Below the pieces are notes generated by a model. That model ran no database searches, had not been told where the DNA came from, and saw only the letters and a program-made list of their open reading frames with translations. 64,000 nt of DNA from Deltaproteobacteria bacterium (lineage in GTDB: Bacteria; Myxococcota_A; UBA9160; SMWR01): NCBI GenBank assembly GCA_032128375.1, contig JAQBGU010000002.1:6400-70399 (forward strand), written 5' to 3'. This document shows, in pieces, positions 2,244 to 57,249 of this stretch. Positions within the stretch are counted from its first letter, which is position 1; each line of letters starts with the position of its first letter. Both the position numbers and the translations under genes were made by a program.

Positions 2244-3176
2244 GTGAAGCGCTTTATCTCACACGACGAACTCGCCCGCGATAGCCGCTTTTCGCGGCTT
2301 CGGTCGCGCAATCAATTGTTCCGATCGCTTCCCGACGATGTGGATGCGATCGTGAAGGTGCTCGAAAAAATCGGCCCAAAAATCCGCAAGCGAGTCGCGG
2401 GAACTCCGCTGGAGAAAGCCTATGACGAACTCGGTCCCGGTTTCACCTTTCTGACCGCAGGAGGTGGGCGCCAATCGAAGGAGCGGCGCAGTGAAGTCCA
2501 GATGCGGGTGCAGCTGCACGGGATCTTCGTCGGCGAATTGCAGGCGCTCGAAGCGGCCGGCCGAACGATCTGGGATTTCCCGGATGCGCCGTGGGAATTC
2601 AAAATGAACATGGCGCGCCAGTGCTGGGACGAGGCCCGCCACGTGCAGATTTTCGAAAAGCTGATTGATCACGTCGGCGGCGAAATCGGCGAGTTTCCCG
2701 AGAGCACCTTCCTGTTCGAGACTTCATGTCACGACGACCCGGTACTGCGCGTGACGGGTGTAAACCGATGCCTCGAAGGCCTGGCCTGCGATGCGTTTCG
2801 ATCGCTCATCGACTACGGGAAGTCGGTCGGCGACGAGGTCATCGCGCAGGCCGTCGACTACGTGTTGGCTGATGAACTCACCCATGTCCGCTTCGGAAGC
2901 GACTGGGTCAAGCAGTTCACCGAGGGAGACCCCGAGCACGCGCGACGAGCCAAGGAGTACCAGAACGAGACCGATCGGAGTTTCTCATTCGGCGGTGGTC
3001 GCCAGATCGCTCGGGAGGAGCGCGTCGAAGCGGGCTTTACCGACGAAGAAGTCGACGAACTCGAGGCCATCGAAAGGGAGGGCCCGAGACGAGAAACGCT
3101 GGTTCGGGCAGCGGAGATCCTTCGCGACCGCCATCAGGCTCGAAACCGGGGCGAACAGGTACCCGAACTCACGTAG
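2244..3176 (+). CDS. ferritin-like di-iron protein, DUF455 family
   Basis: GELQALEAAGRT ... ARQCWDEARHVQIFEKL ... RCLEGLACD ... LADELTHVRFGSDW, i.e. an E / ExxH / E / ExxH carboxylate-bridged di-iron ligand set. GGAGGA lies 8 nt upstream of the GTG start. Confidence 0.8.
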   Translation: MKRFISHDELARDSRFSRLRSRNQLFRSLPDDVDAIVKVLEKIGPKIRKRVAGTPLEKAYDELGPGFTFLTAGGGRQSKERRSEVQMRVQLHGIFVGELQALEAAGRTIWDFPDAPWEFKMNMARQCWDEARHVQIFEKLIDHVGGEIGEFPESTFLFETSCHDDPVLRVTGVNRCLEGLACDAFRSLIDYGKSVGDEVIAQAVDYVLADELTHVRFGSDWVKQFTEGDPEHARRAKEYQNETDRSFSFGGGRQIAREERVEAGFTDEEVDELEAIEREGPRRETLVRAAEILRDRHQARNRGEQVPELT

Positions 3177-3205
3177 TGGGGCCGGGATAGTGGGGCCGGG
3201 ATAGC
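3174..3205. repeat. 14-bp direct tandem duplication (TAGTGGGGCCGGGA x2 plus a partial third copy)
   Basis: Copies at 3174-3187 and 3188-3201 are identical. The first TAG is the stop codon of the DUF455 gene. Confidence 0.9.
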
Positions 3206-3250
3206 CGACTACACGGCCGCGCGTGATCCCAGCACCCTGTTCGACGCGCG

Positions 3251-4366: not shown

Positions 4367-4390
4367 GGGTACTGTCTCCTGGTATGGGCG

Positions 4391-4456
4391 CAGTTGCGAT
4401 TGCGAGCAGTTGTAGTTGCGTGTAGTTGCGTGTAGTTGCGAGTAGTTGCAGTTGAG
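4391..4456. repeat. 10-bp tandem repeat array (TGTAGTTGCG x3 perfect, degenerate flanking copies)
   Basis: Perfect copies at 4411-4440, flanked by CAGTTGCGAT/TGCGAGCAGT and AGTAGTTGCA/GTTGAG. The array starts 25 nt upstream of the di-iron oxygenase start codon. Confidence 0.9.
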
Positions 4457-32023: not shown

Positions 32024-32040
32024 GGCGGACGTTTCTCCTG

Positions 32041-35709: not shown

Positions 35710-35926
35710 AATAGTAGCAGGCTTCGCAAGCGCATCGTGACCGTAGGCGACAGTTGCAGGACTGCTTGCCAACTTCTCTGTCGATCGACTTCACGCCTGG
35801 CAAGGCACCGACCCGCGCCGAACGGGTCGAGACAACTGCGCGCACAACGTGAAGTTCTCACGGCCGTGAACAGCAAGCCCACCGCTAGAGTGCACGATCG
35901 GTCGCAATGAGTAGAATGAAGCGGGG

Positions 35927-36013
35927 CCTGTAGAGGGCGTGTAGAGGGCCTGTTGAGTACCTGTTGAGTACCTGTTGAAGAACCTGTCGAGAACCTGTTG
36001 AGAGCCTGTCGAA
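35927..36013. repeat. about eight tandem copies of an 11-12 bp unit (CCTGTTGAGTA-like)
   Basis: GCCTGTAGAGGG CGTGTAGAGGG CCTGTTGAGTA CCTGTTGAGTA CCTGTTGAAGAA CCTGTCGAGAA CCTGTTGAGAG CCTGTCGAACG, ending about 70 nt upstream of the GNAT gene start. Confidence 0.9.
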
Positions 36014-36083
36014 CGCGTCGACTCCACGGCGGAACCGTCGGCCGATACCGATCGCCGCACATCGAACCGGAGAGATCGCGGAA

Positions 36084-36887: not shown

Positions 36888-36921
36888 AAGCGCGGTCGCC
36901 GCTGCTGTCACCACTGACGAG

Positions 36922-37310
36922 ATGCTGTCACCCAAGGTCGCGCCCCCGCCAGGCGAACTGCGGCGACTCGGCGCAGCGGACCGCGCAGCCGTCGAAGCGC
37001 TAGACGAGGACATCCAGTGGATCTCGGGCGCCCTCGACGGCCCGCGCGCGCTCGCCGAGATGAACACCGCCTTCGGAGGCTTCGGCTCGGGTCGCCTGGC
37101 CTCCGTTGCAGTCCCGTTCTACGTCGGGGAGCGCTTACTGGAGCCCGGTCTGCTCGGCGGCGGTGATCGCCGACATCCAATCCCGCGGTCGATCGCCGTG
37201 CGGGTCGACAACACCGAACAACACCGCGAGCCTGCAGCTCGCATCGAAACTCGGCTTTCGCCAGACGCGCGAAGAGATGCACTTCATGGCCTGTGAGCCG
37301 ACCGAGGGCT
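36922..37310 (+). pseudogene. tandem partial duplicate of the GNAT gene 3' half, with a 44-nt deletion and frameshift
   Basis: 36937-37310 aligns base for base with 36432-36860 (offset 505 bp): PPGELRRLGAADRAAVEALDEDIQWISGALDGPRALAEMNTAFGGF versus APGEIRRLGAQDAAAVEALDDDIEWISDTLDGPRRLAEFNTAFGGF. Copy 2 lacks 44 nt after GAGCGCTT (junction about 37137) and continues in another frame (...VCSAAVIADIQSRGRSPCGSTTPNNTASLQLASKLGFRQTREEMHF). Confidence 0.7.
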
Positions 37311-37450
37311 CTGCCGCCGGAGTGATCACAGATTCTCCGTCTTGTGTGGCGGCTGCTCGCGAGCCGTATCGCGACGGTGTCGAGCGAGCGACGTCTCGTT
37401 CGAAGACGTATCCTTGCCGGGGTTCGGGCGAATCGGATCGCTCTGGCGGA

Positions 37451-38092
37451 ATGCCAATGAAAGGTGCAGTCCAGGTCATCACCCTCTTTCTCCTTGCAGC
37501 GCTGTCTAACGCTTGTGCTGGGAACGTCGACCTCGTGTTCGTCGCGGGCGAGGACCTCTCGAAGTGCCAAACCTGGAATTGGCTGCCTCGGAGAGGCTCC
37601 AACATCGATGTGACTCAGGGCGACCCCGCGTTGATCGGAGCCAAGCTTTCGCGGCTCATCGAGCGGAAGCTGATTGACAACGGCTTCCGGCGCGCTTTCA
37701 CCGATCCGGACTTCCACGTCACCTACCAGCTCGCTCAGCGTCGACATCTCGTCGAGGAGAACGAGCCGAGCGCGATCTATGAGCTTTCGAGCTTGGACTC
37801 GTCGCCATCGTATTCCATTGAGCGCTCCGACAGGGTGACGCATCGCTATCAAGAAATGCGGCTCGGAATCGCGGCGATCCGACCCGGCGGAGGAACGCTC
37901 TGGCATGCCACGTTTACCCAGTACGAGCGGGAGCATCACGCCGTGAAACTCGATGACGCCGTGGCCATGTTGCTCGCGCGCCTTCCCCGCCCGGCACCCG
38001 ATGAACGTTCACCACCAGAATTCAGCGGGCGACCTGCGCGTGCGGCAGTTCCAGCGACCGCGGAATCACGACGCGGTCAAGCGCTGGAATGA
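37451..38092 (+). CDS. DUF4136-like secreted/lipoprotein
   Basis: MPMKGAVQVITLFLLAALSNACAG signal peptide, then ...CQTWNWLPRRG...LIGAKLSRLIERKLIDNGFRRAFTDPDFHVTYQL..., the DUF4136 pattern. The longer track ORF (37106) is a fusion with the GNAT remnant frame. Confidence 0.6.
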   Translation: MPMKGAVQVITLFLLAALSNACAGNVDLVFVAGEDLSKCQTWNWLPRRGSNIDVTQGDPALIGAKLSRLIERKLIDNGFRRAFTDPDFHVTYQLAQRRHLVEENEPSAIYELSSLDSSPSYSIERSDRVTHRYQEMRLGIAAIRPGGGTLWHATFTQYEREHHAVKLDDAVAMLLARLPRPAPDERSPPEFSGRPARAAVPATAESRRGQALE

Positions 38093-38105
38093 ACCCGTGG
38101 TGCGC

Positions 38106-41100
38106 CTAATGACCAGACCGGGCTGCGCGCGAGCGGCGCGATTGCAGAAGCACGCGCAGGTCCCGATCGCGGTCTTCTGGCAACGCCTCCGCGATCTCCA
38201 GCGCGCGCGCGTAGACCACAACCGGCAGGTTCGCAGTGTCGGCGATCCGGCGCAGTGATCCCCAGACAACGCTCGGTTGATCGGTGGCGAGAGCCGCGGT
38301 TGCCCGCAACAGCGAATCGCCCGCCTCCCATTTCCGCGACAGCAGAGTCTCCGCGATTACCAGGGCTTCGGCGCCCGCCGTCGGGTCGCCCGCCGTGAGC
38401 CGCCAGCGAGCACGCAGCCGGGACGCCTCCACGAACAATGCTTCCCCCGGCAGAATGCGTCCGAGTTCAGCGTCGAGCGTGGCGACCGAGTCCCAATCAC
38501 CCGACACCTCATGGCGCCGGCCTGAGATCAACGCGGCGAGCTGTTCGTCGAGATCCTGCTGCGAGATTCCCGCGGCCGCGCTCGCTTGCGCGATCGTGAG
38601 CGGGAGACTCGCCACCAGCCCCACCACCGCGTCACTCATGTCGGGCGCCAGCTCGAGGGCCCGTTCGAAGTGCCGTGCCGCCCGGCCTGGCCGGGCGAGT
38701 CCGAGTTCGACCCAACCGAGCCCGGCCTCGTCGAGCGCGGGTTCTTGGGACATGGCCAGCGCGAAAGCGCGCTCTTCGAAGCCTGTCGCGACGAGCTTGC
38801 GGAGCAGCGCGGACTGGTCGAGTCCGTCGATCCCAGTGAGCAACGGGTCGAGATCGTCCCACAACCGACGGACGGAATTGACGTTGAGAGCAGAGTTTCC
38901 GAGGCGCGACGCGCGCGAGGCGAGCAGGTTGTGATCGTCCGTGATCAGTGATCCGCCCTCGCTCAGCGCCCGAGTCCCCACGGAATCGAGCACCCGCACC
39001 GCGGCGAAGTCCTCGACGCGATGAATTCCGAAGCGGCCGTAGTCTTCTGGGGTGGCTTGCAATGCCCGGCGTGCGCTCTCGAGAGACGCGAACGGCTCGA
39101 CCGATGCCGCGAAGAGTAGGCCCGAGCTGCCGGCCGGCTGGTAGACCTCCACGTTCCCAAACACATCGACTAGCGTCGCCGCGAGCGATCGCAGCAGCGC
39201 AGCGTCGACGAAACTGAGCCCGATCCATTGCGCGAACACCCCGTCGGGCTGCAGGCGTGAGCGCACCAGCGCAAAGAATTCCCGCGTATAAAGATGGGAG
39301 GCGCCGGCCGTCCAAGGGTGTGACGGCTGGGAGACGACAGCGTCGAAGCGCCGCTCCGTCAGTTGCAGCAGTCCGCGTGCGTCTCCGATATGTACTCGAA
39401 CACGTGAATCCTCGAGTGGATCGATGTTGCGCTCAGGGGCGGCTCGCTGATTGGCCGTCAGGATCTCGCGCTCGATTTCGATCACGTCGATCGACGCGAT
39501 CGACGATGGAATCGGCTCGAGCGCTCTGCCACCACCGAGCCCGATCACCAGCAGGTCGCGCGCGTCGGGGCGCAGGAGTGATGGGAGCAGGCCCATCCAG
39601 TACCCGATGGAGGGTTGGGGCAGCATTCCGGCGCGCTCGATGATCGACTCGGGCAATCCGTTGGAGGTGAGGCGGAATTGAGTCGTTTGATCGAATAGCA
39701 TCACAGTGCTCGAACGCCCGACGGCGGCGTAGACGATTTCGCCCTGGGAACGCTGACGCGAGAGAGGCGACGAGCTCAATAGCGCCCACGGTGTGTGTGG
39801 GGGTCGTGCGATCAAGACCAGCGCCGCTGTTGCAGTGGCGATGGCGAGTGCCGTACGTCTGGGGCGAATCGACACCGCCGCGATCGCCCCGAGTCCGAGG
39901 TTCGCAATGGCTCCGCCGGCAATCGTTCCCGCAAAGCCCAGACCCGGGAGTAACACGAACCCCGCACCCAGCGCGCCGGCAATCGCGCCCAGCGTGTTCC
40001 ACGCGTACACGCGCGCGGTCGCTCCGGCGGCCTGCTCGGGAGACAGCGCGAGTACGCGTACAGCGAACGGGAACGTGGCACCGATACACAGTGTGATTGG
40101 CAGCAGTACCGCGCCTGCGACCGCCGCACTGGCGAGGGGAGCCCCGGCTCCGGCCCCGACCACAAGCGAAAGCTCCGGAAGCCAGTCGGCGAAGGCGAAG
40201 CCCAAGTAGGAGGTCAACGCGATCCCGAGCTGCGCCACCCCAAAGCCGACCGCGGCGCGTTCGCGGCTCGTCGCCAGACGCGACGCGAACGCACTGCCCA
40301 GCGCGATGCCCAGCAGAAAGCTCGCGAGCATGGTGGCGAAAGCGTCGAGACTCGCACCCAGCAGTTGCCCGAGCAGCCGAGTCCACAGCACCTCGTAAGC
40401 AAAGGAAACAGCTCCCGATACTGCGACGGCCGGCAGGATCCAAGCGGCGCCGCCAGCGACAGGTTTCGGCGCCGGTCGCATCCGATTCGCGGTCTCCGGC
40501 TTCATCGTACCCGGTGCCAGGCAGGCGGCCAGCGCAAAAACGAGCCCGTTCAGCGCCACACCGACCCAGACCGTGTGGCGCAACCCGAGCTCGGGCATCA
40601 GCCAAAAGGCTGCACACAGGGTGCCGACGATCGCACCCGCTGTGTTCACCGCGTACAGCACACCGACCCGTCGGCCGATCTCCGCCTCGTTGCGCACGGC
40701 GTAGTGCGCGAGCACGGGTAGCGTTGCCCCCATGAAGGCGGTCGGGGGCAGCAGGACCGCAAAGGCGGTCCCGAGCTGGAACAGCGCGGCGGCCGTGGCT
40801 TCGGCTTCCGGCAGTTCGTCGCCGCCTCGGAGCAGTCCGACGTATACCGAGTTGGTCAGCCGGATCCCAACGGGGACCAACAACGCAGAGACGGCGGTCG
40901 CCAGTTCGAGCACGCCGTAGGCCAGAACCGGCCGGCGCATCCGCGTCACGTATCGCGCCGCTGCCGCAGCGCCGAGCGCGAGCCCGCCCATGTAGGCCGC
41001 GAGGACTGCCGCGATGGCGAGTTCGGAAGTTCCGAACACGAAGCTCAGCTCACGCGTCCACACCGTCTGGTAGAGGAGTGCCGCGAAACCGGACAAGAAG

Positions 41101-41138
41101 AAGCAGGCGAGCAGCAGCGCGAATCGGGTGTCCATCAT
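38106..41138 (-). CDS. fused MFS-like membrane domain / spermidine-synthase-like / TPR-like protein
   Basis: N-terminus MMDTRFALLLACFFLSGFAALLYQTVWTRELSFVFG plus 12 or more hydrophobic helices. The central domain is LLVIGLGGGRA...IDVIEIEREI...VHIGDARG...FDAVVSQPSHPWTAGASHLYTREFF. The tail is helical and repeat-like. Confidence 0.8.
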   Translation of the reverse strand: MMDTRFALLLACFFLSGFAALLYQTVWTRELSFVFGTSELAIAAVLAAYMGGLALGAAAAARYVTRMRRPVLAYGVLELATAVSALLVPVGIRLTNSVYVGLLRGGDELPEAEATAAALFQLGTAFAVLLPPTAFMGATLPVLAHYAVRNEAEIGRRVGVLYAVNTAGAIVGTLCAAFWLMPELGLRHTVWVGVALNGLVFALAACLAPGTMKPETANRMRPAPKPVAGGAAWILPAVAVSGAVSFAYEVLWTRLLGQLLGASLDAFATMLASFLLGIALGSAFASRLATSRERAAVGFGVAQLGIALTSYLGFAFADWLPELSLVVGAGAGAPLASAAVAGAVLLPITLCIGATFPFAVRVLALSPEQAAGATARVYAWNTLGAIAGALGAGFVLLPGLGFAGTIAGGAIANLGLGAIAAVSIRPRRTALAIATATAALVLIARPPHTPWALLSSSPLSRQRSQGEIVYAAVGRSSTVMLFDQTTQFRLTSNGLPESIIERAGMLPQPSIGYWMGLLPSLLRPDARDLLVIGLGGGRALEPIPSSIASIDVIEIEREILTANQRAAPERNIDPLEDSRVRVHIGDARGLLQLTERRFDAVVSQPSHPWTAGASHLYTREFFALVRSRLQPDGVFAQWIGLSFVDAALLRSLAATLVDVFGNVEVYQPAGSSGLLFAASVEPFASLESARRALQATPEDYGRFGIHRVEDFAAVRVLDSVGTRALSEGGSLITDDHNLLASRASRLGNSALNVNSVRRLWDDLDPLLTGIDGLDQSALLRKLVATGFEERAFALAMSQEPALDEAGLGWVELGLARPGRAARHFERALELAPDMSDAVVGLVASLPLTIAQASAAAGISQQDLDEQLAALISGRRHEVSGDWDSVATLDAELGRILPGEALFVEASRLRARWRLTAGDPTAGAEALVIAETLLSRKWEAGDSLLRATAALATDQPSVVWGSLRRIADTANLPVVVYARALEIAEALPEDRDRDLRVLLQSRRSRAARSGH

Positions 41139-41139
41139 G

Positions 41140-41650
41140 GGCTCCGTACCTGGGTTAGGCCGCGGTGCACTGTATCTTGCCTCACCTGCCTTCGCGGGCC
41201 CCCCTCGTTCCACGCCCTCATGAACGACGCCAGCGCTTGACTTTGCGGAACGCTCTGAGAAAGGCCCTTCGGGCCAGGCAGGCCGTCGATGATGCCGAGC
41301 TCGATCGACAGCGCGCCGAGTCCGCGCACGACCAGCTCATGGAACACGCTGGCCCAAGCTTTCGAAGACCTCCTTGTCCCCGGCTTGGAGCATGATCACC
41401 CCCGTGTCGGCGGCTCGTCGTCACGCCGCTCACCACCAGCATGCATTGCTTCCCGATCTCCTTGCCCCTCCGCATCGAAAGTCGGATCGACCGCCATCTC
41501 GCGGATCGCAGCGGCGGCATTGGAAGCGAGCGCCGTCTTCGAGCTCTGGTGGGTTCATGACCTGGGCTACGGACTCCGATCGCGCCTGTGCGCGTAGGTC
41601 AAAGAGCGCGACAAGGCTCTGCTGGTCGCACGCTTTGACCTATCCTCGAA
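41140..41650 (-). pseudogene. multiply frameshifted remainder of a DUF2461 (TIGR02453-like) gene
   Basis: Downstream of the sulfatase stop, three frames carry protein-like pieces (SLVALFDLRAQARSESVAQVMNPPELEDGARF / AAAAIREMAVDPTFDAEG / IMLQAGDKEVFESLGQR / VFHELVVRGLGALSIELGIIDGLPGPKGLSQSVPQSQAL). Stops and frameshifts interrupt them, and none is an intact ORF with a start codon. Confidence 0.35.
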
Positions 41651-43276
41651 TTATCCTGCACCTTCTCGCCCCATATTCTCGCTGAACATCAGGTGCAAGC
41701 CGTCTTTGTAGGGCCGTTTGTCCTTGGAATAGCGCACGTCGCGATCGATGCGCATGATCGCGCCGTTGATGCGCGGCGCTGCGAGGACCGGTGCGAGTTT
41801 CTGCAACTCGGTGCCAATCGCCGAAACGAATTTTTTCGTTCCGGAATTTGTTGGCCCGGAATCGCCAGTCAACAAGGCGTCGAGCAGCGTGTTCAATCGC
41901 TCTACTGTGTCGCGATTCTCAGGGTCATAGGCCACGTTTTGATATTCGCGCGGATCGTTCTGGTGGTCGTAGAGTTCGGCTCCCAGCAACTCCCATTCAC
42001 CGCCGCGGCGGCCTCCCCAGCGAACGTAGCGATACCTCTGTGTGCGCACGGTCTGGCCGATCGAATTGGCCCGATACGCCCAGCCAAGAGCTGCTTCCTC
42101 CCACGGCCGATCGGGATCGTTCAGCAGCGCGACGAAACTCACGCCTTCGCCCTGGCGGGGATCGGGAATCCCCGTCAGTTCGCACAAGGTTGGCAGAATG
42201 TCGGCCGATTCCACCAGCCCGCTCGAAGACTGTCCACCCAAGACGCCTGGCACACGCAGGATCAACGGAATGCGAAGCGATTGTTCCAGAGCGGTGTTCT
42301 TGCCCCAGATTCCGTGCTCGCCCAGATGCCAGCCGTGGTCCCCCCAGAGCACGACTACGGTTCGATCGGCGAGCCCTTGCCGCGCGAGCTCGGCGAGCAA
42401 TCTCCCTATCTGTGCGTCGACGTAGCTGACGCAGGCGCGATAGCCGTGGATCAACCGTTTGGCCGTGTCGGCGTCGATCGATCCGCCACCGTCGTAGACG
42501 CGCGGCTCATAGTTGCCATGAAACTGCTGATTGGCAACGCGATACATACCCTCTCGATCGGGGACCTCGATCTGATCGCGATCGTAGAGATCCCAATACC
42601 TGGCAGGACAATTGAACGGAAGGTGTGGACGAACGAAACCGACCGCCAGGAAGAAGTCGCGGTCTTCCATCCTCCGCAGCTCTTCGATTGCCCTTGTCGC
42701 GATCTTTCCGTCTACGTACGCGTCGTCCGGGACATCGGGTGCTTCGGATATGGGCCCGCGTCGGGAGGTTTGAATTCCCGACATGTGGACGTTTTCGGTC
42801 GCCAGATATTGGGGGTGAACCCATTCGGGCGGTAGCCAACTCTCGCGGCTCCAAGCCTCCGGCGCGTCTTTTGCGGTGTGCAGGAACTTTCCCACCTCGA
42901 CGGTTTCATAGCCCGCATCCTTGAATAGGCGCGGGAGCGGGATCAAGCGCGGGTTGCCCTCAGACAACGCCGGAGCCATGAAGATTACCCCCGTGGTCTG
43001 CGGATACGCTCCACTCAGCATCGAAGCGCGTGACGCAGCGCAAGCCGCTACGGCGGCGTAGGCTCGATCGAATCGCACACCTTGCGCTGAAAGTCGGTCG
43101 ATGTTGGGTGTAATCGCTGGTGCGCCGTACGCACCGAGTTCCGGGCGGAGGTCATCGACGGAAATGAAAAGTACGCTCAACCGCGACCGCTTCGGCTGGA
43201 TTCGCTCGGACGGACATCCGAATGAAAACAGCAGAGCAAGAAGCATCGCTATCCGAATCAATCGGTACACAGTCAT
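41651..43276 (-). CDS. formylglycine-type sulfatase (lipoprotein) with foreign DUF2461-like C-terminal tail
   Basis: MTVYRLIRIAMLLALLFSFGC signal; VLFISVDDLRPELG; AACAASRASMLSG (C-x-A-x-R variant of CxPxR); WGDHGWHLGEHG. The last ~60 aa, KKFVSAIGTELQKLAPVLAAPRINGAIMRIDRDVRYSKDKRPYKDGLHLMF, match the DUF2461 RxxRDxRFSxDKxPYK motif. Confidence 0.8.
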   Translation of the reverse strand: MTVYRLIRIAMLLALLFSFGCPSERIQPKRSRLSVLFISVDDLRPELGAYGAPAITPNIDRLSAQGVRFDRAYAAVAACAASRASMLSGAYPQTTGVIFMAPALSEGNPRLIPLPRLFKDAGYETVEVGKFLHTAKDAPEAWSRESWLPPEWVHPQYLATENVHMSGIQTSRRGPISEAPDVPDDAYVDGKIATRAIEELRRMEDRDFFLAVGFVRPHLPFNCPARYWDLYDRDQIEVPDREGMYRVANQQFHGNYEPRVYDGGGSIDADTAKRLIHGYRACVSYVDAQIGRLLAELARQGLADRTVVVLWGDHGWHLGEHGIWGKNTALEQSLRIPLILRVPGVLGGQSSSGLVESADILPTLCELTGIPDPRQGEGVSFVALLNDPDRPWEEAALGWAYRANSIGQTVRTQRYRYVRWGGRRGGEWELLGAELYDHQNDPREYQNVAYDPENRDTVERLNTLLDALLTGDSGPTNSGTKKFVSAIGTELQKLAPVLAAPRINGAIMRIDRDVRYSKDKRPYKDGLHLMFSENMGREGAG

Positions 43277-44894: not shown

Positions 44895-46871
44895 TCACTG
44901 TAGAGCGGCTTTTCTCGGCCTATCCTCCAGAAGTACACCCAGGTTGTACTGGGCCTCTGCGTAGTCCGGCCTGATCCGTAAGGCCTCTTGGTAGTGCGTC
45001 ATCGCCTCTGCGAGGCGTCCCAGGTCCTGGACGGCGAGGGCCCAGTTGTAGTGAGCCTCGGCCAGGTTCGTCTTGTTCCGCAAGGCATCTCGGTAGTGCG
45101 CGATCGCCTCCTCAGAACGGCCGAGGTTCGCCAACGCGGTTCCCCAGTTGTAATGGGCATCGGCGTAGTCCGGCTCGATCCGCAATGCGTGTTCGTAATG
45201 CGCAACTGACTCCTCGAAGCGCCCCAACAGCTGCAGGGCGGTGCCCCAGCCGTCATGGGCCTTGGCGTGATCCGGCTCCAACCGCAAGGCCTTTTGGTAA
45301 TGCGCCACCGCCTCTTCAGGACGGCCAAGACCCGCCAGGGCAACGCCCCAGTTGTAGTGGGCCTCCGCGTAGTCCGGCTCGATCTGCAACGCTTCTTGAA
45401 CTTGGGTCAGCGCCGCATCAAAGCGTCCGACCCTTCCCAGAGCGGCGCCCAGGTTGTTGTGGGCTCTGGCGTGCTGGGGGCTCTTCGAGACCACATCGCT
45501 CCAGAGCGTGATCTCGTCCTGCCAGACCTGGTTTCGGTGGTACGAACCTACTGCCAGTAGCAGACAGATGGCCGCGGGCACGGCGACCGCCCAGCCCGAC
45601 GGGGCCCCCGTTCCAGCGAACAGCAGCCAGGCCAGCAACAGTGAAAAGCCGACCATTGGCAGATACAACCGGTGCTCGAAAACCATCTCCAGCCCGATCA
45701 CACTCGATTCGATCACCAGGTGCAGGAAAAACCATAACAAGCAGAAGGAAGCAATCCGATGTCGGTGCGCCAGATAGAGGGTCAGGCCCAACAGGCCAGA
45801 GATACCCACCATCGAGAGCAACGTGGTGATCGGTTCGATCGGAGATTGCGAAGGGACGACTTGATGAATCAGGTTCAGTCGCGACGGATGTGGCACCGCC
45901 AGCAGGCTGAGATAGAACATGACGACGCGAAATTGTGTCATTAGCCGCTGGCCCAACGTGAAGTCACGATGGGCGTAGCTCGCCAACAACCTGTCGAGTG
46001 GCTCACTGCCCAGGTAGAGCCACGCCAGCAACCCCAGCAACCCCAGCAGCGCCAACGCCAGCAATCCGAACTTTGTGTTCTTCTTGGCACCAGCAACGCC
46101 CGAGTCCTGAAAGAAGTACCACTCGAACCACAGGATGGTCACCGGCAGGGTGACGGAGATCTGCTTGCTGCCCAAAGCCAATAGCCAACAGACAACGCTG
46201 CTTGCCCAAAGTGTCCAGCGACGACGGGGCGCCTGTGCAGTGCGTCCGTAGATATAGAGCAACAGCGCCGCCAGGTAGAAAAATGCGCACAGGCTGGTCA
46301 TCCGCTGGACGATGTACGTCACCGCCTGAGTTTGGATCGGATGACTGGCGAAGATCAGGGCAGCTGTCAGCGCGATCCAATGCGAAACGGAAGGCCGCAA
46401 CAGGCGGTCCTCGCGCGGCGGGACCCGCCGGAGCACGGCCAGCGCCAGCAGGTACACGAGCAAGGCAGTGAGCAGGTGGATGCCGATGTTGACGACATGG
46501 TATCCCCTGACGTTGTGCTGGCCGAAGTAGTAGTTCAGCGCGAAGGAAAGGTTCGCCACCGGCCGACTCGGACTGGGGCTCTCGCGCACGGCTCCTTGCA
46601 CGCCCGACCAGCTGAAGTCCGTCCAGCGTAGGCTCCGGTTGTCTTGGATGTTGGGAACGTCATCAAAGACAAACGGCCCGGAAAGGCTGTTCGAATAAGC
46701 GGCCAGACAGAGAACAGCGATAGATGACATCGCGAACACGTGAAATGCGCCGTGTCGGCCGGGGACTGAATCAACGGCGTTTTGCGACGCCGCTTTTCGC
46801 GGATTGGATTTTCGGCTGAAGCTCTTTCGACGGCCCACGCGTGCGATTGTAACCCGACCCGGGACTTGCAT
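44895..46871 (-). CDS. TMTC-like protein: GT-C-type membrane domain plus C-terminal TPR array
   Basis: N-terminal helices with FVFDDVPNIQDN (a DD loop-1 motif as in PMT/TMTC). The C-terminus has about 8 TPRs (repeated AHYNWGxAL...GRxEEAxxHYxxALRxxPDxAxA). Confidence 0.75.
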   Translation of the reverse strand: MQVPGRVTIARVGRRKSFSRKSNPRKAASQNAVDSVPGRHGAFHVFAMSSIAVLCLAAYSNSLSGPFVFDDVPNIQDNRSLRWTDFSWSGVQGAVRESPSPSRPVANLSFALNYYFGQHNVRGYHVVNIGIHLLTALLVYLLALAVLRRVPPREDRLLRPSVSHWIALTAALIFASHPIQTQAVTYIVQRMTSLCAFFYLAALLLYIYGRTAQAPRRRWTLWASSVVCWLLALGSKQISVTLPVTILWFEWYFFQDSGVAGAKKNTKFGLLALALLGLLGLLAWLYLGSEPLDRLLASYAHRDFTLGQRLMTQFRVVMFYLSLLAVPHPSRLNLIHQVVPSQSPIEPITTLLSMVGISGLLGLTLYLAHRHRIASFCLLWFFLHLVIESSVIGLEMVFEHRLYLPMVGFSLLLAWLLFAGTGAPSGWAVAVPAAICLLLAVGSYHRNQVWQDEITLWSDVVSKSPQHARAHNNLGAALGRVGRFDAALTQVQEALQIEPDYAEAHYNWGVALAGLGRPEEAVAHYQKALRLEPDHAKAHDGWGTALQLLGRFEESVAHYEHALRIEPDYADAHYNWGTALANLGRSEEAIAHYRDALRNKTNLAEAHYNWALAVQDLGRLAEAMTHYQEALRIRPDYAEAQYNLGVLLEDRPRKAALQ

Positions 46872-50414: not shown

Positions 50415-52745
50415 CTAGCCTTGCGAAACTGCAGCCGCGGAAGCAGCCTCGCGAAGCTTCTGAGCGCGCTCGGCCGCCTGTGCGGCGGGCTCTGGCTCGC
50501 CCCGCTGGAGGTGGACCCGGCTGAGCAGCTCGAGTGTATCGGGGCCGTGGCGCAGGTTCACGGCTCGGCGGGCTCGCTCGAGCGTCCGATCGGTCGCGGC
50601 CCCGCGCTCGAGGTCCAGTCGAGCGCGTTCAGAAGCTGCCTCGGCGTCGAAGGGGTGCTCCACCAGCAGCCTGTCGAGCCGCTCGGCCGCCAGCTCGGGT
50701 TTTCCCGCGGCGACGAGTGCTCTCGCTGACAGAAGCTGCAGGTTGGGATCGGAGGGGTCCGCTGATGCGGCGCGGTCGAACAAGACCAGGGCTGCCTCGG
50801 CGTCGTCGGCCAGGGCCAGCCGACCCAATCCCGCTAGCGCCTGCGCGTTGCCTGGCTCGATCTCCAGCGCGCGCGTGTAGGCCGCGCGTACGGCGTCTCC
50901 CGGGGCTCCAGACAGCTCGAGGTTCAATCCTCTGATCTCCTGGAATGCGCTCGAATCGGGGTACGCGGCGAGAATCCTCGTGAGGCTTGCCGCCTGCTCC
51001 GCAGCCTTCCCCTCCACCAGATGCGAAATGCGCACACGCGCTCGCAAAACAGCGGAGAAGCGCGGATCTTCGAAGTCGAGCGCCGGTAGGCTCGCCAGCA
51101 TCTTCAGCGCCTTGGCTGGGCCGGCCAGCCAGGATACGTCCTCGGCAGCATCAGCCACCACCGGCACAGCCAGATCCGTCCCGAACCTCGTGAGCGCGTC
51201 GGTCACAGCAGCCGTCTGGCCCAGAATCGCCCACAAGCGCAATTGCATCAGCTGCCCCTCGATCGGCAGAGGCGCCTCGTCCGCAGCGGTCTGGAGCATC
51301 TGCAATGCGGATCTTGGCTGCCCCAGCGCGAGCAGCAGATCTGCGCCACGCGTGCGAGCATCGGTCGAGCCTGCGTCGATGCGCACCGCATAGCGGTATT
51401 CTGCCAGCGCGCGCTCGAAGTCGCCGAACTCTTCGGCCGCGAGTGCTGCGTAGTAGCGGCCCCAGGGGTTGTCGGGCCAGAGCTTGAGGGCCCCATCGAA
51501 TTCTCTCAGTGCCTGGGCAGGTTGCCGACGCTCCTGTGCGACGCGCGCGCGGATCAGCTGGCGTTGCGCAGGATTGGAGAGGCGCGCCGCAACGTCGAAG
51601 GCCTCATCGAGCCGGCCGGCCAGCACCAGCACATCAGCGTATCCGAACAGCAGTGGCGCCTCGGGTGAGCCCGTTTCGCGAGCCAGCCCGATGCCTCGCT
51701 CGATCGCGTCGGCCGCGGCAGCGAACTCTCCCTGTGCGCGGCGGAGTTCGCCGAGATCCAACCAAGCGGTGGCAGCTACCAGCGGGTTCTCCGATTGCGT
51801 GGGCTCGCGTAGTACGGCGTCGGCCTCGGCGGTGTTGCCCGAACCGCTCAGTCGCAGGGCGAGTGCCAGCCTGAACGCCCGCGAGGTTGGAGACGCCGCC
51901 AGCGCCGATCTCAGTACCTCGAGCGCGCGTTCAGGTTCGCCCATCTCGTCGTAGAAGGTCGCCGCGTTCGTCACCACCTCCGAGTTGCTCGGATGCGCAT
52001 CGAGACACCTGATCCAGGTCTCGCGCGCCTGCTCGAGTTTTTCGCTCTCCCGCTCGAATGCCGCCGTCGTGGAACAGTGCCATGCGAGTACAGCCTGTTT
52101 GGTCGGATTGTCCTGATCTCCGCTCTCCTGCAGCCGGCGACCCGCCTCCGCGAGCGCCTCGCTCGCTTCGTCGAGCCGATCGAGGCTGAGGAGTGCGAGG
52201 ATTTTCGGTTCGTAGGCATCGAGGGCGTCGGGATTGAGTTCGAGCAATCGCTCTGCGTCGGCCAACGCGAGCTCGGGGTCCTTCCTCCAGTGGGCATAGG
52301 CATTCCCACGCATCATCAGCGCGGACTCATTATCTGGCTCGACTTCCAGCACGCGCCCACTGACCTCGACGACCTCGTTGAAGTCATTGGAAACGAGCGC
52401 CCCATAGGCGAGAGACAAGCCGGCCCGCACGAGCCACTCGGGGTCGTTCATCGCCTTGCGAAACGACCAGACCGCCAGGTTCCCCTGGTTGGTGGAAGTG
52501 AGCGCCGTCCCGTAGAGATAGTTCGCTTCCGAGTCATCCGGGTTCGCCTCCAGATATTCCCGAAGCGGCTCGATAGATCCCAGATAATCTCCGATCAATT
52601 GTTGCTGGCGGATGGCTTCGAGCGGGTCGGCCTGCTCGCAAGCGCTGAGTGCGCTGAGTGCGCTGAGTGTTAGGCAGCTGAGTAACCCGATTCTGATCGC
52701 GTGACGCAGGTTCCCGCACGGAATGGCTCGGAGGGCCTGATGCAT
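50415..52745 (-). CDS. large TPR-repeat lipoprotein
   Basis: MHQALRAIPCGNLRHAIRIGLLSCLTLSALSALSAC lipobox, then about 750 aa of TPR-like helical repeats. The start is chosen to clear the divergent gene at 52806. Confidence 0.7.
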   Translation of the reverse strand: MHQALRAIPCGNLRHAIRIGLLSCLTLSALSALSACEQADPLEAIRQQQLIGDYLGSIEPLREYLEANPDDSEANYLYGTALTSTNQGNLAVWSFRKAMNDPEWLVRAGLSLAYGALVSNDFNEVVEVSGRVLEVEPDNESALMMRGNAYAHWRKDPELALADAERLLELNPDALDAYEPKILALLSLDRLDEASEALAEAGRRLQESGDQDNPTKQAVLAWHCSTTAAFERESEKLEQARETWIRCLDAHPSNSEVVTNAATFYDEMGEPERALEVLRSALAASPTSRAFRLALALRLSGSGNTAEADAVLREPTQSENPLVAATAWLDLGELRRAQGEFAAAADAIERGIGLARETGSPEAPLLFGYADVLVLAGRLDEAFDVAARLSNPAQRQLIRARVAQERRQPAQALREFDGALKLWPDNPWGRYYAALAAEEFGDFERALAEYRYAVRIDAGSTDARTRGADLLLALGQPRSALQMLQTAADEAPLPIEGQLMQLRLWAILGQTAAVTDALTRFGTDLAVPVVADAAEDVSWLAGPAKALKMLASLPALDFEDPRFSAVLRARVRISHLVEGKAAEQAASLTRILAAYPDSSAFQEIRGLNLELSGAPGDAVRAAYTRALEIEPGNAQALAGLGRLALADDAEAALVLFDRAASADPSDPNLQLLSARALVAAGKPELAAERLDRLLVEHPFDAEAASERARLDLERGAATDRTLERARRAVNLRHGPDTLELLSRVHLQRGEPEPAAQAAERAQKLREAASAAAVSQG
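52642..52683. repeat. 9-bp in-frame tandem repeat (GCGCTGAGT x3 plus a degenerate copy) inside the signal-peptide coding region
   Basis: Copies at 52642-50, 52651-59 and 52660-68 are identical. They encode LSALSALSA immediately before the lipobox Cys. Confidence 0.9.
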
Positions 52746-52805
52746 TGTCGGACTGTAGACGATGCCTGCGGTCCTGAACCAGGGTCGCTTCGCTACATTG
52801 CGCGC

Positions 52806-54209
52806 ATGCATAAGCGAATACTCGAGCGGCGCTGGCCTTGGCTTACCGCAGGAGGGCTTGGCGTAGCCGTGTTCCTGTTGACATTCGTCCAGATCGGAGA
52901 CTGGGATCGGCGCCCGAGCGGTTCCGTCGATGACATCGCTCGGCTCAAGGACCGCAGCGACGTGAACGTGCTGTTCCTCCTGATCGATACGCTGCGCGCC
53001 GAACACCTCGGCAGTTACGGCTACGAGCGCGACACCAGCCCACTGCTCGATCGTCTCGCGCGTTCGGGTGTTCGTTTCGATCGCCATCTGGCTCAATCCA
53101 CCTGGACCAAATCCTCGATGGCCTCGCTGTGGACCGGGCTCTACCCCGCGCGTACCGGAATCACGCGATTCGATGACGTGATTCCCGACGTCGCGGTGAT
53201 GGCTCCGGAGCGGCTGCGCGAGGCGGGTTTCCAGAGTGTTGGGTTGTATCGCAACGGCTGGGTCGCTCCGACGTTCGGCTTCGATCAGGGATTCGAGGTG
53301 TACGAAAAACCCACACCGTCACCGCTTCCTACGCATGTTCGGCGCGAGAATCCGACGGTCAGCGACAAGGGCACCGACCAGGCGGTGATCGAGGCCGCGC
53401 AAGAGTTTCTTCGCGTCAACGGCCGCGAGCGCTGGTTCCTCTATCTACACCTGATGGACCTCCACGAGTACATCTACAGCCAGGAGACCGCGCTGTTTGG
53501 CAACGCCTACGAGGACATTTACGACAACTCGATCCGCTGGACGGACGACTCGATCGGGTTCCTGATCGAGACGCTCGCCCATCTCGAACTGCTCGAAAAC
53601 ACGCTCGTCGTCGTTGCAGCGGACCATGGCGAGGCATTCCTCGAGCGGGGTTTCGAGGGTCATGCGCGCGAGGTCTACCGGGAGACGACGGACGTTCCGC
53701 TACTGATCTCGTTTCCCTTCCGCCTCGATCCCGGCATCGTCGTCAATACGCGCACCCAAAACGTGGACGTCTGGCCCACGCTTCTCGACTTGCTCGGTCT
53801 CGAGCCGCTCGCGGGGGTCGACGGCCGCTCGCGGGTGCCCGACATCCTGTCGAGCGCGTCTGGGCAAGAAATCGATCCCGTTGGGCAGATTGCGATCACG
53901 TCTCTGGACCAGAATTGGGCTCGGCGCGACAGCCAACCCTTGGAGACGATCGCGGTCCTAGACGGCCCATTGCGCTACGTCCGTAGAGAGCATCCCGGGG
54001 GTACCACCCGCGAGGAACTGTTCGACGCCTCCGACGATCCGCTCGAGCTTCGCGATCGCCTTGCCGAGAATGCGCAGGACGTCGCGCGGCTCAGCGCGAT
54101 GGCGGAAGAATACTACGAGGCGAAACCCAGCTGGGGCGAGTCGCCGACGCGAGAAATCGGCGAACTCGAACTCAACCTGCTGAGGGCCCTGGGCTACCAG
54201 ATCGACTGA
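52806..54209 (+). CDS. sulfatase-like hydrolase/transferase (alkaline phosphatase superfamily) with Thr in the nucleophile position
   Basis: N-terminal TM helix; LFLLIDTLRAEHLG; QSTWTKSSMASLWTGLYP aligns T-K-S-S-M where sulfatases have C-x-P-S-R; AADHGEAF. Confidence 0.75.
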   Translation: MHKRILERRWPWLTAGGLGVAVFLLTFVQIGDWDRRPSGSVDDIARLKDRSDVNVLFLLIDTLRAEHLGSYGYERDTSPLLDRLARSGVRFDRHLAQSTWTKSSMASLWTGLYPARTGITRFDDVIPDVAVMAPERLREAGFQSVGLYRNGWVAPTFGFDQGFEVYEKPTPSPLPTHVRRENPTVSDKGTDQAVIEAAQEFLRVNGRERWFLYLHLMDLHEYIYSQETALFGNAYEDIYDNSIRWTDDSIGFLIETLAHLELLENTLVVVAADHGEAFLERGFEGHAREVYRETTDVPLLISFPFRLDPGIVVNTRTQNVDVWPTLLDLLGLEPLAGVDGRSRVPDILSSASGQEIDPVGQIAITSLDQNWARRDSQPLETIAVLDGPLRYVRREHPGGTTREELFDASDDPLELRDRLAENAQDVARLSAMAEEYYEAKPSWGESPTREIGELELNLLRALGYQID

Positions 54210-54286
54210 GTCCCGCCGAGGCCCATGATCTGATCCCGCGATCGCAGCCGCTTCGCGAGAACGGGTCGTCGGGCTTGATTACTGGA

Positions 54287-57172
54287 TCAGAAGTTGAAGA
54301 TCACGCTGCCGCCGACCGTTCGGGGATCCCCCACGAAATAGATGCTGGTGTTGGTGAAGGTGCTGCCGTCGAAGGCAAAGGTCTTGTACGCCTCATTGGT
54401 CAGGTTGCGCACCCATCCCGCGACTTCGAACCGGCCGCCGGGCGCTCTGTAGGACAGTCTCAAGTTGTGCAACCAGAACGGTGTCTGTGAGGTGGTGTGG
54501 TCTGGGAGAAACTCGATGTTCTGGTTGTTCGGGATCCCTCGGCCCTCCGTCGCATCGAAAAAGGTCTCGTCGGTCCAGACCCCGTCGTAGCGCAATGTCA
54601 ACGAGCCGTACGACCACAGCGGAAGCGTCTGCTCACCGGTCATACTGATCTTGAACCTGGGAGAATTGAGCAGCGAGTTACCGGTGTTCTGGAGTTCGCG
54701 GTTGACGACGACCTTGGCGCCTGAAATGACCGTTGTGTCCTGCTGGATCTGAACGAAGTCGAGAAACTCGCTTTCGATCCAACCGACCCGGAGATTGGCG
54801 AACGCCCCGTACCAGGGCCGGATCACCGCGTCGAGTTCCGCGCCGTACACCTCGGCCGCATCCGCATTGATGATCACGAACTCCGGCTGGCCACCGACGA
54901 ACTGCTGGGCGGTGAACAGCTGGTAGTCGGAATAGGAGTAGTAGAACACCGAGAAGTCGACGCTCAGGCGCCCATCGAGCCAGCTTCCGCTCACCCCGGT
55001 TTCGAACGAGTCGATTGTCTCGGGCCGCGCGACCGAGACCCCCTGTCCCGGCGAGCTGGTGGCATTGTAGGTCCCGGGCTTGAAGCCGCGCGTGTACTTC
55101 CAGAAGGCGTGCGTGTCCTCGCGGAAGCGGTAGGTCAGACGAATCGTACCGGTAGGGTCCTGCCAGATATCGTTGAGCAACTCCGGGCAGATCCCATCCG
55201 GACCACACTGAGTTCCTGAGAAGAGCTCGTAGTCGAGCTTCTTTTGTTCCCAGTTGTATCGGATGCCACCGTCGAGCGTGAAATCGTCCCAGAAGTCGAA
55301 GGCCAGGCTCAGGTAGCCCGCTGCGCTATAGACGTCCTGGGTGTAAACGCGCTTGCCAACTCCGAAAGTACCCGCCACCCCTGGACCCAGATCGTTCGTG
55401 ACCTCGACGTCGAGATTCTCACGCAGAAACCAACCGCCGACCTCCCAGCGGGCACGCCCTTCGCGGAACTGGCCATCGAGTTTGATGTCCTGTGTGAACT
55501 GCCAGCCCTCGTCGTCCGTCTCGATCTGGAACAAGGTCTCTGGCGAAAAGTCGAGGTCGATATCGAGGAAGCGGTCGTAGGTGTCGTAGCCGCTGATCGT
55601 GGCGAGCTGCATTCCCAGCGGCAGCGCGATGTCGCCCTTGAGATAGCCCCCCCAGGTGTCGTTTATCGTTTTTCCGGCATTCTTCTTACACTGCGTTCCG
55701 GGTGCTCCTCCGATGAACACGCCGTTTTCATCAAAAGATGGATCAGTATCGCTTTTTGCGCCGCAGATGTTGAAGTCGCCTACCCACGGCTTGGAGTCGA
55801 GATCCGTGAGTTCCTTGGCCAATATGACCTTCGCCGTGTCCAATTCCTGCCCTCTGAAAGCCTGGGGAACACAGCGGCTCCCTTCCGGGCTGCCAGGTAC
55901 AGAAATGTTCCCCGGTACTGCCGGGTAGCAGTTGGGGGCCAGCTCTCTCAGTCGCTGCCGGATCTCGGGTGCGCGATACCCGGGACTCGTCAGCACCCCT
56001 TGGGTCCCCCCCAACGTGCCGCCGATAAACGCTGTCCCGGGTCGATTTTCGATGCAATTGGAGACGTCGCCGTTCGCACAGGTGTTCCCAAACGTTCCAA
56101 TGGATTGGCCGAGGCGGGTCAACTCGTCCCGCCGTGAGCCGTGTGCATTCACCAGAAAGCTCGCATCCAGCGTGGGTTGGAATAGAAAGGTTCCGCGTGC
56201 CGCCCAGTTGTTGGTGTCGTTTACGTGATCGGGGAGCCCCGGAGGGACTTGCCCGGACATGTACTGCGGAATTCCTCCCCCGGGATTGGCCAGGTTTTCG
56301 TTGACGTTGAGTCTGACCGGTTCGCCACAGACCGACCAGGGTCGGTCTGTGTTCAGAAGACCTGATCGTTGGAGTACCGCGTTCGATGGGACCGCAGCGC
56401 GTTCGGAGTAGGGTTTGGCGCCTCCGCAGCGGTTCTTCATGGTCCCATCGCGCTCGGTCAAACGGAAGGCGAATCGAGCCGAAAGGATGTCCTCGAAAAG
56501 CGGAGTTTCGACGGCGCCCTCGTAGTCACGAAACCCAAAGTCGCCAAGGTCGCTGCGAAGGAAACCACCGAATTCGCCCGTAGGCTTGCGGGAGTAGATC
56601 TTGATCGCCCCCGCCGACGCATTGCGCGCGAGGCCGGTGCCCTGGGGTCCACGCAGGACGTTGACAGCCTCGATGTCGAAGAGCGTGTCGAGTTGCAGCG
56701 CTGGGGCGTTTCTGACCACGTCGTCTTGATAGATGGCGACAGCACCGGTTGAATTGGAGTTGAAGTCGTTGAGGCCGACGCCGCGGATGAAAAAGGTCGG
56801 CGAGGTCGCACCGTAGGACACGATTTCGAGATTGGGGGTAAACGCCGCGATGTCGGCGATGTTCTGGGCACCCAGTGCCGCCAGGTCCTCGGCGCCGAAG
56901 CCCGTCACCGAGTCGGCGACACTGAAATCACGCGCGGCATCCGATTCGCCGCCCCGCACCAGGAACTCCTCGATTCCGGGCCGGGACGGCGGTTCCCGAT
57001 CGAAACCGGGCGATGCCTCGTCGTCGGAATCCGGCAGGGGCTCTTGTGCCCGTGCCGGCGGCGCAGCGACGATCGCCAGCGCGTACCCGACCGCGATTGC
57101 AACGGCGACCCAGGAATTTCCGCATTGGGTGTGGGGCAGCCCGTGGCCCCGTCGCTCGACTCGACTCTGCAT
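54287..57172 (-). CDS. TonB-dependent receptor
   Basis: Signal peptide ...WVAVAIAVGYALAIVAAPPARAQ; plug motifs IEEFLVRGG, NIADIAAFTPN, FIRGVG, AVAIYQDDV; long beta-barrel ending ...GGSVIFNF. AAGGA lies upstream of ATG 57172 (alternative 57193). Confidence 0.9.
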   Translation of the reverse strand: MQSRVERRGHGLPHTQCGNSWVAVAIAVGYALAIVAAPPARAQEPLPDSDDEASPGFDREPPSRPGIEEFLVRGGESDAARDFSVADSVTGFGAEDLAALGAQNIADIAAFTPNLEIVSYGATSPTFFIRGVGLNDFNSNSTGAVAIYQDDVVRNAPALQLDTLFDIEAVNVLRGPQGTGLARNASAGAIKIYSRKPTGEFGGFLRSDLGDFGFRDYEGAVETPLFEDILSARFAFRLTERDGTMKNRCGGAKPYSERAAVPSNAVLQRSGLLNTDRPWSVCGEPVRLNVNENLANPGGGIPQYMSGQVPPGLPDHVNDTNNWAARGTFLFQPTLDASFLVNAHGSRRDELTRLGQSIGTFGNTCANGDVSNCIENRPGTAFIGGTLGGTQGVLTSPGYRAPEIRQRLRELAPNCYPAVPGNISVPGSPEGSRCVPQAFRGQELDTAKVILAKELTDLDSKPWVGDFNICGAKSDTDPSFDENGVFIGGAPGTQCKKNAGKTINDTWGGYLKGDIALPLGMQLATISGYDTYDRFLDIDLDFSPETLFQIETDDEGWQFTQDIKLDGQFREGRARWEVGGWFLRENLDVEVTNDLGPGVAGTFGVGKRVYTQDVYSAAGYLSLAFDFWDDFTLDGGIRYNWEQKKLDYELFSGTQCGPDGICPELLNDIWQDPTGTIRLTYRFREDTHAFWKYTRGFKPGTYNATSSPGQGVSVARPETIDSFETGVSGSWLDGRLSVDFSVFYYSYSDYQLFTAQQFVGGQPEFVIINADAAEVYGAELDAVIRPWYGAFANLRVGWIESEFLDFVQIQQDTTVISGAKVVVNRELQNTGNSLLNSPRFKISMTGEQTLPLWSYGSLTLRYDGVWTDETFFDATEGRGIPNNQNIEFLPDHTTSQTPFWLHNLRLSYRAPGGRFEVAGWVRNLTNEAYKTFAFDGSTFTNTSIYFVGDPRTVGGSVIFNF

Positions 57173-57198
57173 CCGATTCCTTCCGGCCATCATCCACT

Positions 57199-57249
57199 CA
57201 CTACCGGTTTGACTACCAGTTCGACTACCAGTCTCGTCCAGTCTCGTCT
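57199..57249. repeat. two adjoining short tandem repeats (12-bp GACTACCAGTTC-like x3; 10-bp CAGTCTCGTC x2)
   Basis: CACTACCGGTTT GACTACCAGTTC GACTACCAGTCT CGTCCAGTCT CGTCTCG, in the 134-bp divergent region between the TonB-dependent receptor and the 57328 gene. Confidence 0.85.

Follow-up and report, generated by a model that had tools for sequence, protein, structure and literature searches.

Tandem arrays of 7-14 bp units in an uncultured Myxococcota lineage as probable variable-number repeats of slippage origin

Long-unit repeats in bacteria and the arrays described here

Long simple sequence repeats, with units of 5-11 base pairs (bp), were reportedly found by Mrazek, Guo and Shah in 2007 (PNAS) in the large, GC-rich genomes of non-pathogens. 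Such long-unit repeats have been reported mostly from non-pathogens with large genomes of >60% GC, and in E. coli repeats concentrate within 200 nucleotides (nt) upstream of start codons (PMC4692102). Here we describe eight tandem arrays in 64,000 nt of a Deltaproteobacteria bacterium (the window: contig JAQBGU010000002.1 of assembly GCA_032128375.1, positions 6,400 to 70,399 of the forward strand), which match the long-unit class of large GC-rich non-pathogens as well as the known concentration upstream of starts. We consider it likely that these arrays are lineage-enriched long-unit (7-14 bp) repeats resembling variable-number tandem repeats (VNTRs), produced by slippage and restricted by selection to non-coding DNA and tolerant N-terminal stretches of proteins. 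In fact as in a VNTR or a long-unit simple sequence repeat, the units lie head to tail, the copy number changes while the flanks are conserved, and the arrays are either non-coding or frame-preserving.

The resemblance to described systems is of several kinds. Like the long-unit repeats of the 5-11 bp class, the arrays have units longer than those of microsatellites, a GC-rich environmental host, mostly intergenic positions, a proposed slippage origin and no link with host interaction; they differ in that the units here reach 14 bp, that the host belongs to an uncultured Myxococcota clade outside that survey, and that the enrichment is taken from ~72 kb. The VNTR loci used in multiple-locus VNTR analysis (MLVA) of Burkholderia mallei and B. 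pseudomallei (PMC1574311) share with them the head-to-tail copies, the conserved flanks, a copy number varying between close relatives and frame-preserving units inside genes, while the variation here is seen at 0.5-5% divergence and from assemblies rather than from typed isolates. The single-motif repeats, for example GGGAATC in Xanthomonas and GGGGAYT in Nostoc (PMC4692102) or TAACTGA in Beggiatoaceae (PMC4679880), are likewise intergenic, often near the ends of open reading frames (ORFs) and variable in length between close relatives, and with them two of our arrays (1 and 4) may share the capacity to form a G-quadruplex (G4). However, in those systems a single motif occupies ~100 sites or more, with 117 intergenic regions for X. 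campestris and 169 repeat sets for a Beggiatoaceae draft, whereas each array here has its own unit. The contingency loci of Neisseria, Haemophilus and Campylobacter are similar in having repeats near gene 5' ends and in slipped-strand mispairing, but they have units of 1-7 bp in many copies, switch genes on and off by frameshift or promoter spacing, concern surface-protein or restriction-modification genes, and vary within clonal populations.

The host is an uncultured Myxococcota lineage near the GTDB genus JAJDAM01, from Baltic Sea sediment. The proteins of its closest relatives carry the label Myxococcota, and a published survey counts the run ERR5010722 among Baltic Sea metagenomes and also names benthic metagenome-assembled genomes (MAGs) 'JAJDAM01 sp., Myxococcota_A, SMWR01'. 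The region is ordinary chromosome with metabolic and housekeeping genes and two sulfatases (Pfam), and Rfam and tRNA scans of the window returned no match. Contigs of the NCBI MAG GCA_032128195.1 are 99.9-100% identical to the window, and Logan contigs of the runs ERR5010711, ERR5010721 and ERR5010722 are equally close; for example, contig JAQBGZ010000105.1 has 9 single-nucleotide polymorphisms (SNPs) over 27636-42023 and is 100% identical over 51825-64000. Altogether the assemblies of this same population differ from the window by 0-0.08% SNPs. For comparison over longer distances we used a sister species (GCA_032125315.1, 95-97% identity to the window, with L170 as its locus) and a more distant syntenic relative (GCA_029261905.1, contig prefix JAJDAM01, by which it is called below); other loci and contigs are cited by their handles.

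Abundance and copy number of the arrays

Arrays were called with Tandem Repeats Finder (TRF), which recovers all eight of those listed by the initial annotation, at most 3 nt from where it had placed them. Its statement that the units are unrelated also stands: the mean best cyclic match is 0.559, versus 0.544 +/- 0.007 for shuffled units, and a motif common to all units is rejected. Over the window and the 8.4 kb beyond it, unit length is 7-14 bp, copy number 2.1-13.3 and the proportion of matches 85-100%, and the units are arranged head to tail.

Third-order Markov shuffles give 0.74 arrays of score >=50 where 10 are observed, while real genomes provide the fairer control. A first control set comprised 1.13 Mb from 80 other, mostly GC-rich bacteria, found via the radical SAM protein encoded in the window (best match 76%); this protein is too conserved, and its search of genome contigs gave no close relative. 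Further control loci came from a search of metagenome contigs with the Memo protein, where there was a single match of 75%, on a truncated contig, and the full set amounts to 1.80 Mb in 160 loci. By the 80-bacteria controls the total density of arrays is unremarkable (10 observed versus 6.6 expected per 64 kb, P=0.13), which rejects a general excess of tandem repeats and limits the excess to short-unit, multi-copy arrays. By the full set, arrays with units of 4-17 bp and score >=50 number 8-9 in 72.4 kb versus 2.65 expected (~3-fold, P=0.006), and those of score >=90 number 4-5 versus 0.12 (~35-fold, P=8e-6 to 2e-7). Thus the initial impression of an atypical density holds for multi-copy arrays of 7-14 bp units and fails for arrays in total. 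Moreover, an out-of-sample test is provided by the next 8.4 kb of the same genome, beyond the window, which hold two strong arrays, (GAAAGCC)x13.3 and (AGTGCCGTGGAG)x4.4, both intergenic, versus 0.014 expected (P=1e-4). The relatives also carry non-orthologous arrays of their own (L170 at 12134 and 13447, L178 at 9565).

The copy number reveals how the arrays behave through time. All four arrays with an orthologue in the sister species (arrays 2, 3, 4 and 5) differ between it and the window. Array 4 (32038-32128, CTGGGTGTCG, 10 bp x9.1 with T/C unit variants, TRF score 154), in the intergenic spacer between the Memo and radical SAM genes, has nine units in the window versus three in the sister species, an exact gap of 60 bp between flanks that are ~95% identical. 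Array 5, which is coding (35153-35224, TRF row 35156-35224, plus strand, GCGAACGAAATG, 12 bp x5.8, TRF score 103), has six units versus three in the sister species and two in the wider protein family. Array 2 (4390-4449, intergenic, TGTAGTTGCG, 10 bp x3.9, with a 16-bp row and degenerate GCAGTTGCGA units) appears in the sister species as the variant CAACTACTCA with at least 3.6-4.7 units, where the sister contigs end inside the array, and it is absent in JAJDAM01, whose spacer is 47 bp. Array 3 (29063-29108, intergenic, composed of (TA)5, (GA)n and AGAGAGTT x3.5) corresponds in the sister species to (AGAGAT)x8.8 over 60 bp, with a 13-bp indel. Two sister-species assemblies that are 99.5% identical, L170 and L171, are exactly one 12-bp unit apart (4.2 versus 3.2) in one of the sister species' own arrays.

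Beyond the sister species, JAJDAM01 lacks array 1 (3174-3204, intergenic, TAGTGGGGCCGGGA, 14 bp x2.2) and has a spacer of 29 bp there. JAJDAM01 carries a 13 bp x4.4 array of its own, located 16 nt before another gene. The heptamer array beyond the window has 13 units in the window species versus 2 in L173, and the 12-mer array 4.4 units versus ~1. Relatives thus hold proto-arrays of 1-3 units at the same sites, and the distant ones have 0-2 units at the window's array sites and arrays of their own elsewhere. As far as these alignments go, the pattern appears to be one of birth from proto-repeats followed by lineage-specific expansion. As a rough estimate, an array would change by one unit for every 0.5-1% of divergence, which is 50-100 times as fast as substitution at a single site.

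At the shortest distance no copy-number change is seen in ~16 array-by-assembly comparisons at 99.9-100% identity, covering all eight arrays in consensus assemblies of three runs. The arrays are base-for-base identical in GCA_032128195.1 and in the Logan contigs of these runs: array 1 in L087, L088 and L089, array 4 in L081, L082 and L083 (L084 ends inside it), array 6 in L081/L085 and L086, and arrays 7 and 8 in L181. The sole SNP inside an array among the same-population assemblies is a C>T at 29087, within array 3 in L082.

In the process that we propose, short proto-repeats would be extended by local tandem duplication and replication slippage into arrays of 7-14 bp units, such expansions being unusually frequent in this Myxococcota lineage, and selection would then set their persistence. 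Units that are not a multiple of three would survive only in non-coding DNA, and units of 9 and 12 bp would survive in genes only in a disordered N-terminus or in the hydrophobic core of a signal peptide. Slippage is the mechanism that we infer, and the arrays would be neutral or nearly so. The suspicion of a slippage-prone replication or repair background is in this way sustained as regards slippage, by copy-number change between conserved flanks, and not as regards a mismatch-repair defect, which is weighed below.

Placement relative to genes and the coding arrays

The initial annotation had described the arrays as placed at gene 5' ends, all but one of them within about 100 nt of a start codon or inside the first 25 codons. 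For several arrays the positions are indeed close to starts. Array 4 is upstream of two genes: 14 nt separate it from the Memo start codon (32023, minus strand) and 124 nt from the radical SAM gene (32253, plus strand). Array 2 is flanked by the stop codon of a TetR gene (4464) and the start of an AurF-like gene (4366, minus strand); since its spacer is only 47 bp in JAJDAM01 and the genes are co-directional, this spacer is probably intercistronic, within a probable operon. Array 6 (35924-36013, intergenic, about nine degenerate 11-bp units of the form CCTGTWGAGNR, TRF x7.7, score 95) lies 70 nt upstream of a GNAT acetyltransferase gene (36084, plus strand). Array 8 (57200-57248, intergenic, ACTACCAGTTCG of 12 bp x2.8 followed by CCAGTCTCGT of 10 bp x2.1) occupies the divergent spacer between a TonB-dependent receptor gene (54287-57172, minus strand), which adjoins an ExbB/ExbD/TonB cluster (Pfam), and an unannotated gene (57328-58392, plus strand). 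A caveat applies to three others: array 3, in the divergent spacer between a MaoC/mesaconyl-CoA hydratase gene (minus strand) and a dCTP deaminase gene (plus strand), has the two starts at distances of 103-120 nt; array 7 occupies codons 27-35, beyond the first 25; and array 1 lies between two stop codons of convergent genes, hence not at a 5' end at all, its first base falling on the TAG stop codon of a DUF455 gene (2244-3176, plus strand). Another array, at 20210 in L181, likewise begins on the TAG stop of the gene preceding it, and TAGTG opens both units, which is probably a coincidence.

The claim of a specific 5' placement is not supported by the statistics. What is significant is the intergenic location: 13.7% of the window is intergenic by the gene model, and six of the eight arrays are found there (P=1.4e-4). 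Among these six, five are beside a gene start, compared with 78% of intergenic bases bordering a start (P=0.60), and over all arrays of the clade the position within the spacer fits a uniform distribution (P=0.08 in stop-to-start spacers and P=0.57 in divergent spacers), so that a special placement near start codons is rejected. The arrays look placed at 5' ends because most bacterial intergenic DNA borders a gene start; the 5'-end placement is a by-product of the intergenic location and not a design. Inside genes, every array with a TRF score >=40 has a unit that is a multiple of three by the gene model, and the weaker of these frame-preserving coding arrays are spread along genes, at codons 50-763. 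No promoter or terminator was predicted when the spacers that hold arrays 1, 2 and 4 were scanned.

The two coding arrays of the window, with units of 12 and 9 bp, both preserve the reading frame as initially noted, and they sit in length-tolerant N-terminal segments. Array 5 encodes (M-A/T-N/D-E)n, as M-A-N-E and M-T-D-E units, with which a small protein of 96 amino acids (aa) (35165-35455) begins. This protein belongs to a very conserved, unnamed family with >8000 homologues at 74-96% identity, almost all of 84 aa; its length is 88 aa in the sister species and 84-93 aa in other clade members. It has no family match in Pfam or NCBIfam, and NCBIfam likewise has none for the other unannotated genes tested. 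In the window the ancestral start codon reads ATT (35153), whereas the sister species (L170) has an intact ATG. The first in-frame ATG available in the window is 12 nt, or one unit, downstream inside the array, so that upon the ATG-to-ATT change the spacing from Shine-Dalgarno sequence to start goes from 6 nt to 18 nt. Each unit holds an in-frame ATG. The start shifts one unit downstream into the array, and the array therefore supplies spare start codons.

Array 7 (52642-52669, minus strand, ACTCAGCGC on the coding strand, 9 bp x3.1) encodes LSA-LSA-LSA in the hydrophobic core of a lipoprotein signal peptide with the lipobox LSAC at its end, in a gene for a TPR protein (50415-52745), its codons being counted from the most likely start of the reading frame. 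The signal peptide is 36 aa long in the window versus 30 aa in the JAJDAM01 orthologue, that is two units more. A different kind of repetition is found in another TPR protein gene (44895-46739, minus strand), where a 102-bp period at 44938-45398 called by TRF is the 34-residue TPR repeat, ordinary repetition at the protein level.

The surroundings of arrays 5 and 6 have further features of note. Between the small-protein and GNAT genes the sister species has a gene for a 4HBT thioesterase of 232 aa, of which the window keeps about the first 175 bp (a 66-aa ORF, 35509-35709) followed by unrelated sequence (region 35509-36054); this truncation next to array 6 is a gene loss or replacement, to judge by the alignment. 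The 3' part of the GNAT gene (36689-36875) recurs with ~80% identity at 37138-37321, within the ORF that follows (36922-37296, 124 aa, no family), which looks like a partial gene duplication. Two further non-repeat indels relative to the sister species are a 144-bp deletion at 29986, which truncates an 88-aa ORF to 41 aa, and a 112-bp insertion in a spacer at 7310. Outside the window, a run of ten A at L181 16140-16149, ~25 nt upstream of an acyl-CoA dehydrogenase start codon, stands out in a genome of 62% GC, and the orthologous spacer of L173 carries a 17 bp x3.1 array.

Weighing the alternatives

Several points weigh against a neutral, lineage-enriched slippage origin. The enrichment applies to the ~72 kb of this genome and the ~58 kb of relatives that were examined, and the control loci all surround a single conserved gene pair in draft assemblies. 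Array 6 has no counterpart in the sister species and, by alignment with L170, belongs to ~125 bp that were inserted in the window; ~35 bp of non-repeat sequence came in with it, and it is for this reason not a simple local duplication. Neutrality is also open to doubt, as arrays 2, 4, L170-9940, L170-12134 and L178-9565 are 0-24 nt from a start codon, and the stop-to-start spacers have a weak, non-significant lean towards the start, with the P value given above. Finally, an unrelated Myxococcota MAG (locus L007, JBNLVL010000002.1, 9755-9829) has an independent TCGGCTGTCCGT array of 12 bp x6.5 in the orthologous Memo/radical SAM spacer, which could hint at selection at this site.

The last two points belong to the best surviving alternative, by which the arrays would be functional cis-elements, namely rheostats of helical-turn spacing in the 5' untranslated region (UTR) or promoter, G-quadruplexes, phased binding sites or curved DNA. 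Many intergenic units are of 10-13 bp, near the helical repeat. The window has four canonical G4 motifs by sequence pattern (at least four tracts of G3 or more, loops of 1-7 nt), and two of them are predicted at arrays 1 (3178-3200) and 4 (32040-32122), both G-rich on the plus strand, the latter with nine GGG tracts and 7-nt loops; the other arrays do not have this pattern. G-rich heptamer repeats near ORFs are also documented in Xanthomonas and Nostoc (PMC4692102). Nevertheless we regard this alternative as unlikely. The units are mutually unrelated, so that no single factor can read the arrays; relatives that conserve the flanking regulatory sequence have no array at these sites, or one of 1-3 units; and the placement of the arrays within spacers fits a uniform distribution. 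At the Memo/radical SAM site, just one of the 42 other genomes with the divergent pair (that of L007) has a strong array in the spacer, whose median length is 106 bp. A reading as iterons or as sets of protein-binding sites is rejected, the arrays being absent or proto-repeats in JAJDAM01 and L173 and the units unrelated. Intrinsic curvature, one of the possibilities named in the initial annotation, is discarded too, for want of A-tracts phased at ~10.5 bp: no array unit in the window has an A4/T4 tract, and the sole T4 unit, in L178, recurs every 13 bp, out of helical phase.

An intermediate reading would have a lineage-specific mutational process, or a relaxed suppression of repeat expansion, repeatedly seed and enlarge tandem duplications of 7-14 bp in 5' UTRs and promoters, with some arrays then kept because they tune expression of the gene beside them by roughly one helical turn at a time. 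We hold this to be somewhat more doubtful still. The candidates for such tuning may be the C/A-rich leader of the Memo gene, 14 nt from its start codon, the arrays 1 and 4 of predicted G4 capacity, and the same-spacer array of L007.

Less probable are contingency (phase-variation) loci, also envisaged at the outset, in which selection favours hypermutable repeats that stochastically switch or tune the genes beside them within a population. Arrays do lie in promoter or 5'-UTR DNA or at N-termini, and array 8 adjoins the gene of a TonB-dependent receptor, a class that is phase-variable in some pathogens. Yet the units in the window are of 8-14 bp in 2-9 copies instead of 1-7 bp in many copies, the one exception in unit size being the heptamer array outside the window, in L181; (TA)5 and (GA)5 are the sole short-unit tracts among the window arrays, and they are below the usual contingency thresholds. 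The coding arrays cannot switch a gene on and off, since both are frame-preserving. Apart from the TonB-dependent receptor, the neighbours are mostly metabolic or housekeeping genes (Memo/radical SAM, dCTP deaminase, hydratase, GNAT, diiron oxygenases; Pfam). Moreover, copy number is unchanged among the near-identical assemblies, and contingency loci change at rates that are orders of magnitude above the rate estimated for the arrays here. Independent Logan contigs end at or inside arrays (L084, L088, L089, L172, L179 and L180; window positions 3175, 4440 and 32123), which allele mixtures could cause, but such ends are expected from k-mer assembly of repeats alone; mixed copy-number alleles would give the same picture.

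A mismatch-repair-deficient (mutator) genome, with the arrays as its symptoms, is just as improbable. It would accord with an enrichment of slippage products in the lineage, and the window has no mutS or mutL gene, which says nothing on the rest of the genome. However, repeats of mono- to tetranucleotides are at control density (7 versus 8.5, 24 versus 24.8, 3 versus 3.6 and 1 versus 2.0, observed versus expected), and coding sequence diverges from the sister species by an ordinary ~3%, with only three 1-bp gaps inside genes in an alignment of ~15 kb. MutS handles loops of ~1-4 nt, loops longer than ~4 nt being poor substrates, and longer-unit repeats owe their stability more to the fidelity of replication and to single-strand exonucleases. 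As for assembly artefacts, the possibility that would have undone the whole observation, they are scarcely credible: all data come from short-read metagenome assemblies whose contigs often break at arrays, but no array exceeds 93 bp, less than the length of a read, and the arrays are identical in assemblies by different pipelines from three runs, have internal unit variants that make most k-mers unique, and have orthologous arrays in the sister species.

Under the reading that we favour, VNTR-like repeats born by slippage and filtered by selection, the arrays reveal no new regulatory system. They explain the contig breaks of these MAGs at particular intergenic sites, and they are ready-made strain markers for the populations of Baltic Sea sediment. 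If the enrichment is genome-wide, this lineage would be a natural case for studying how the birth and growth of long-unit repeats are controlled in bacteria, a subject much less studied than microsatellite phase variation, and also for studying how much change in spacer length housekeeping promoters and leaders tolerate.

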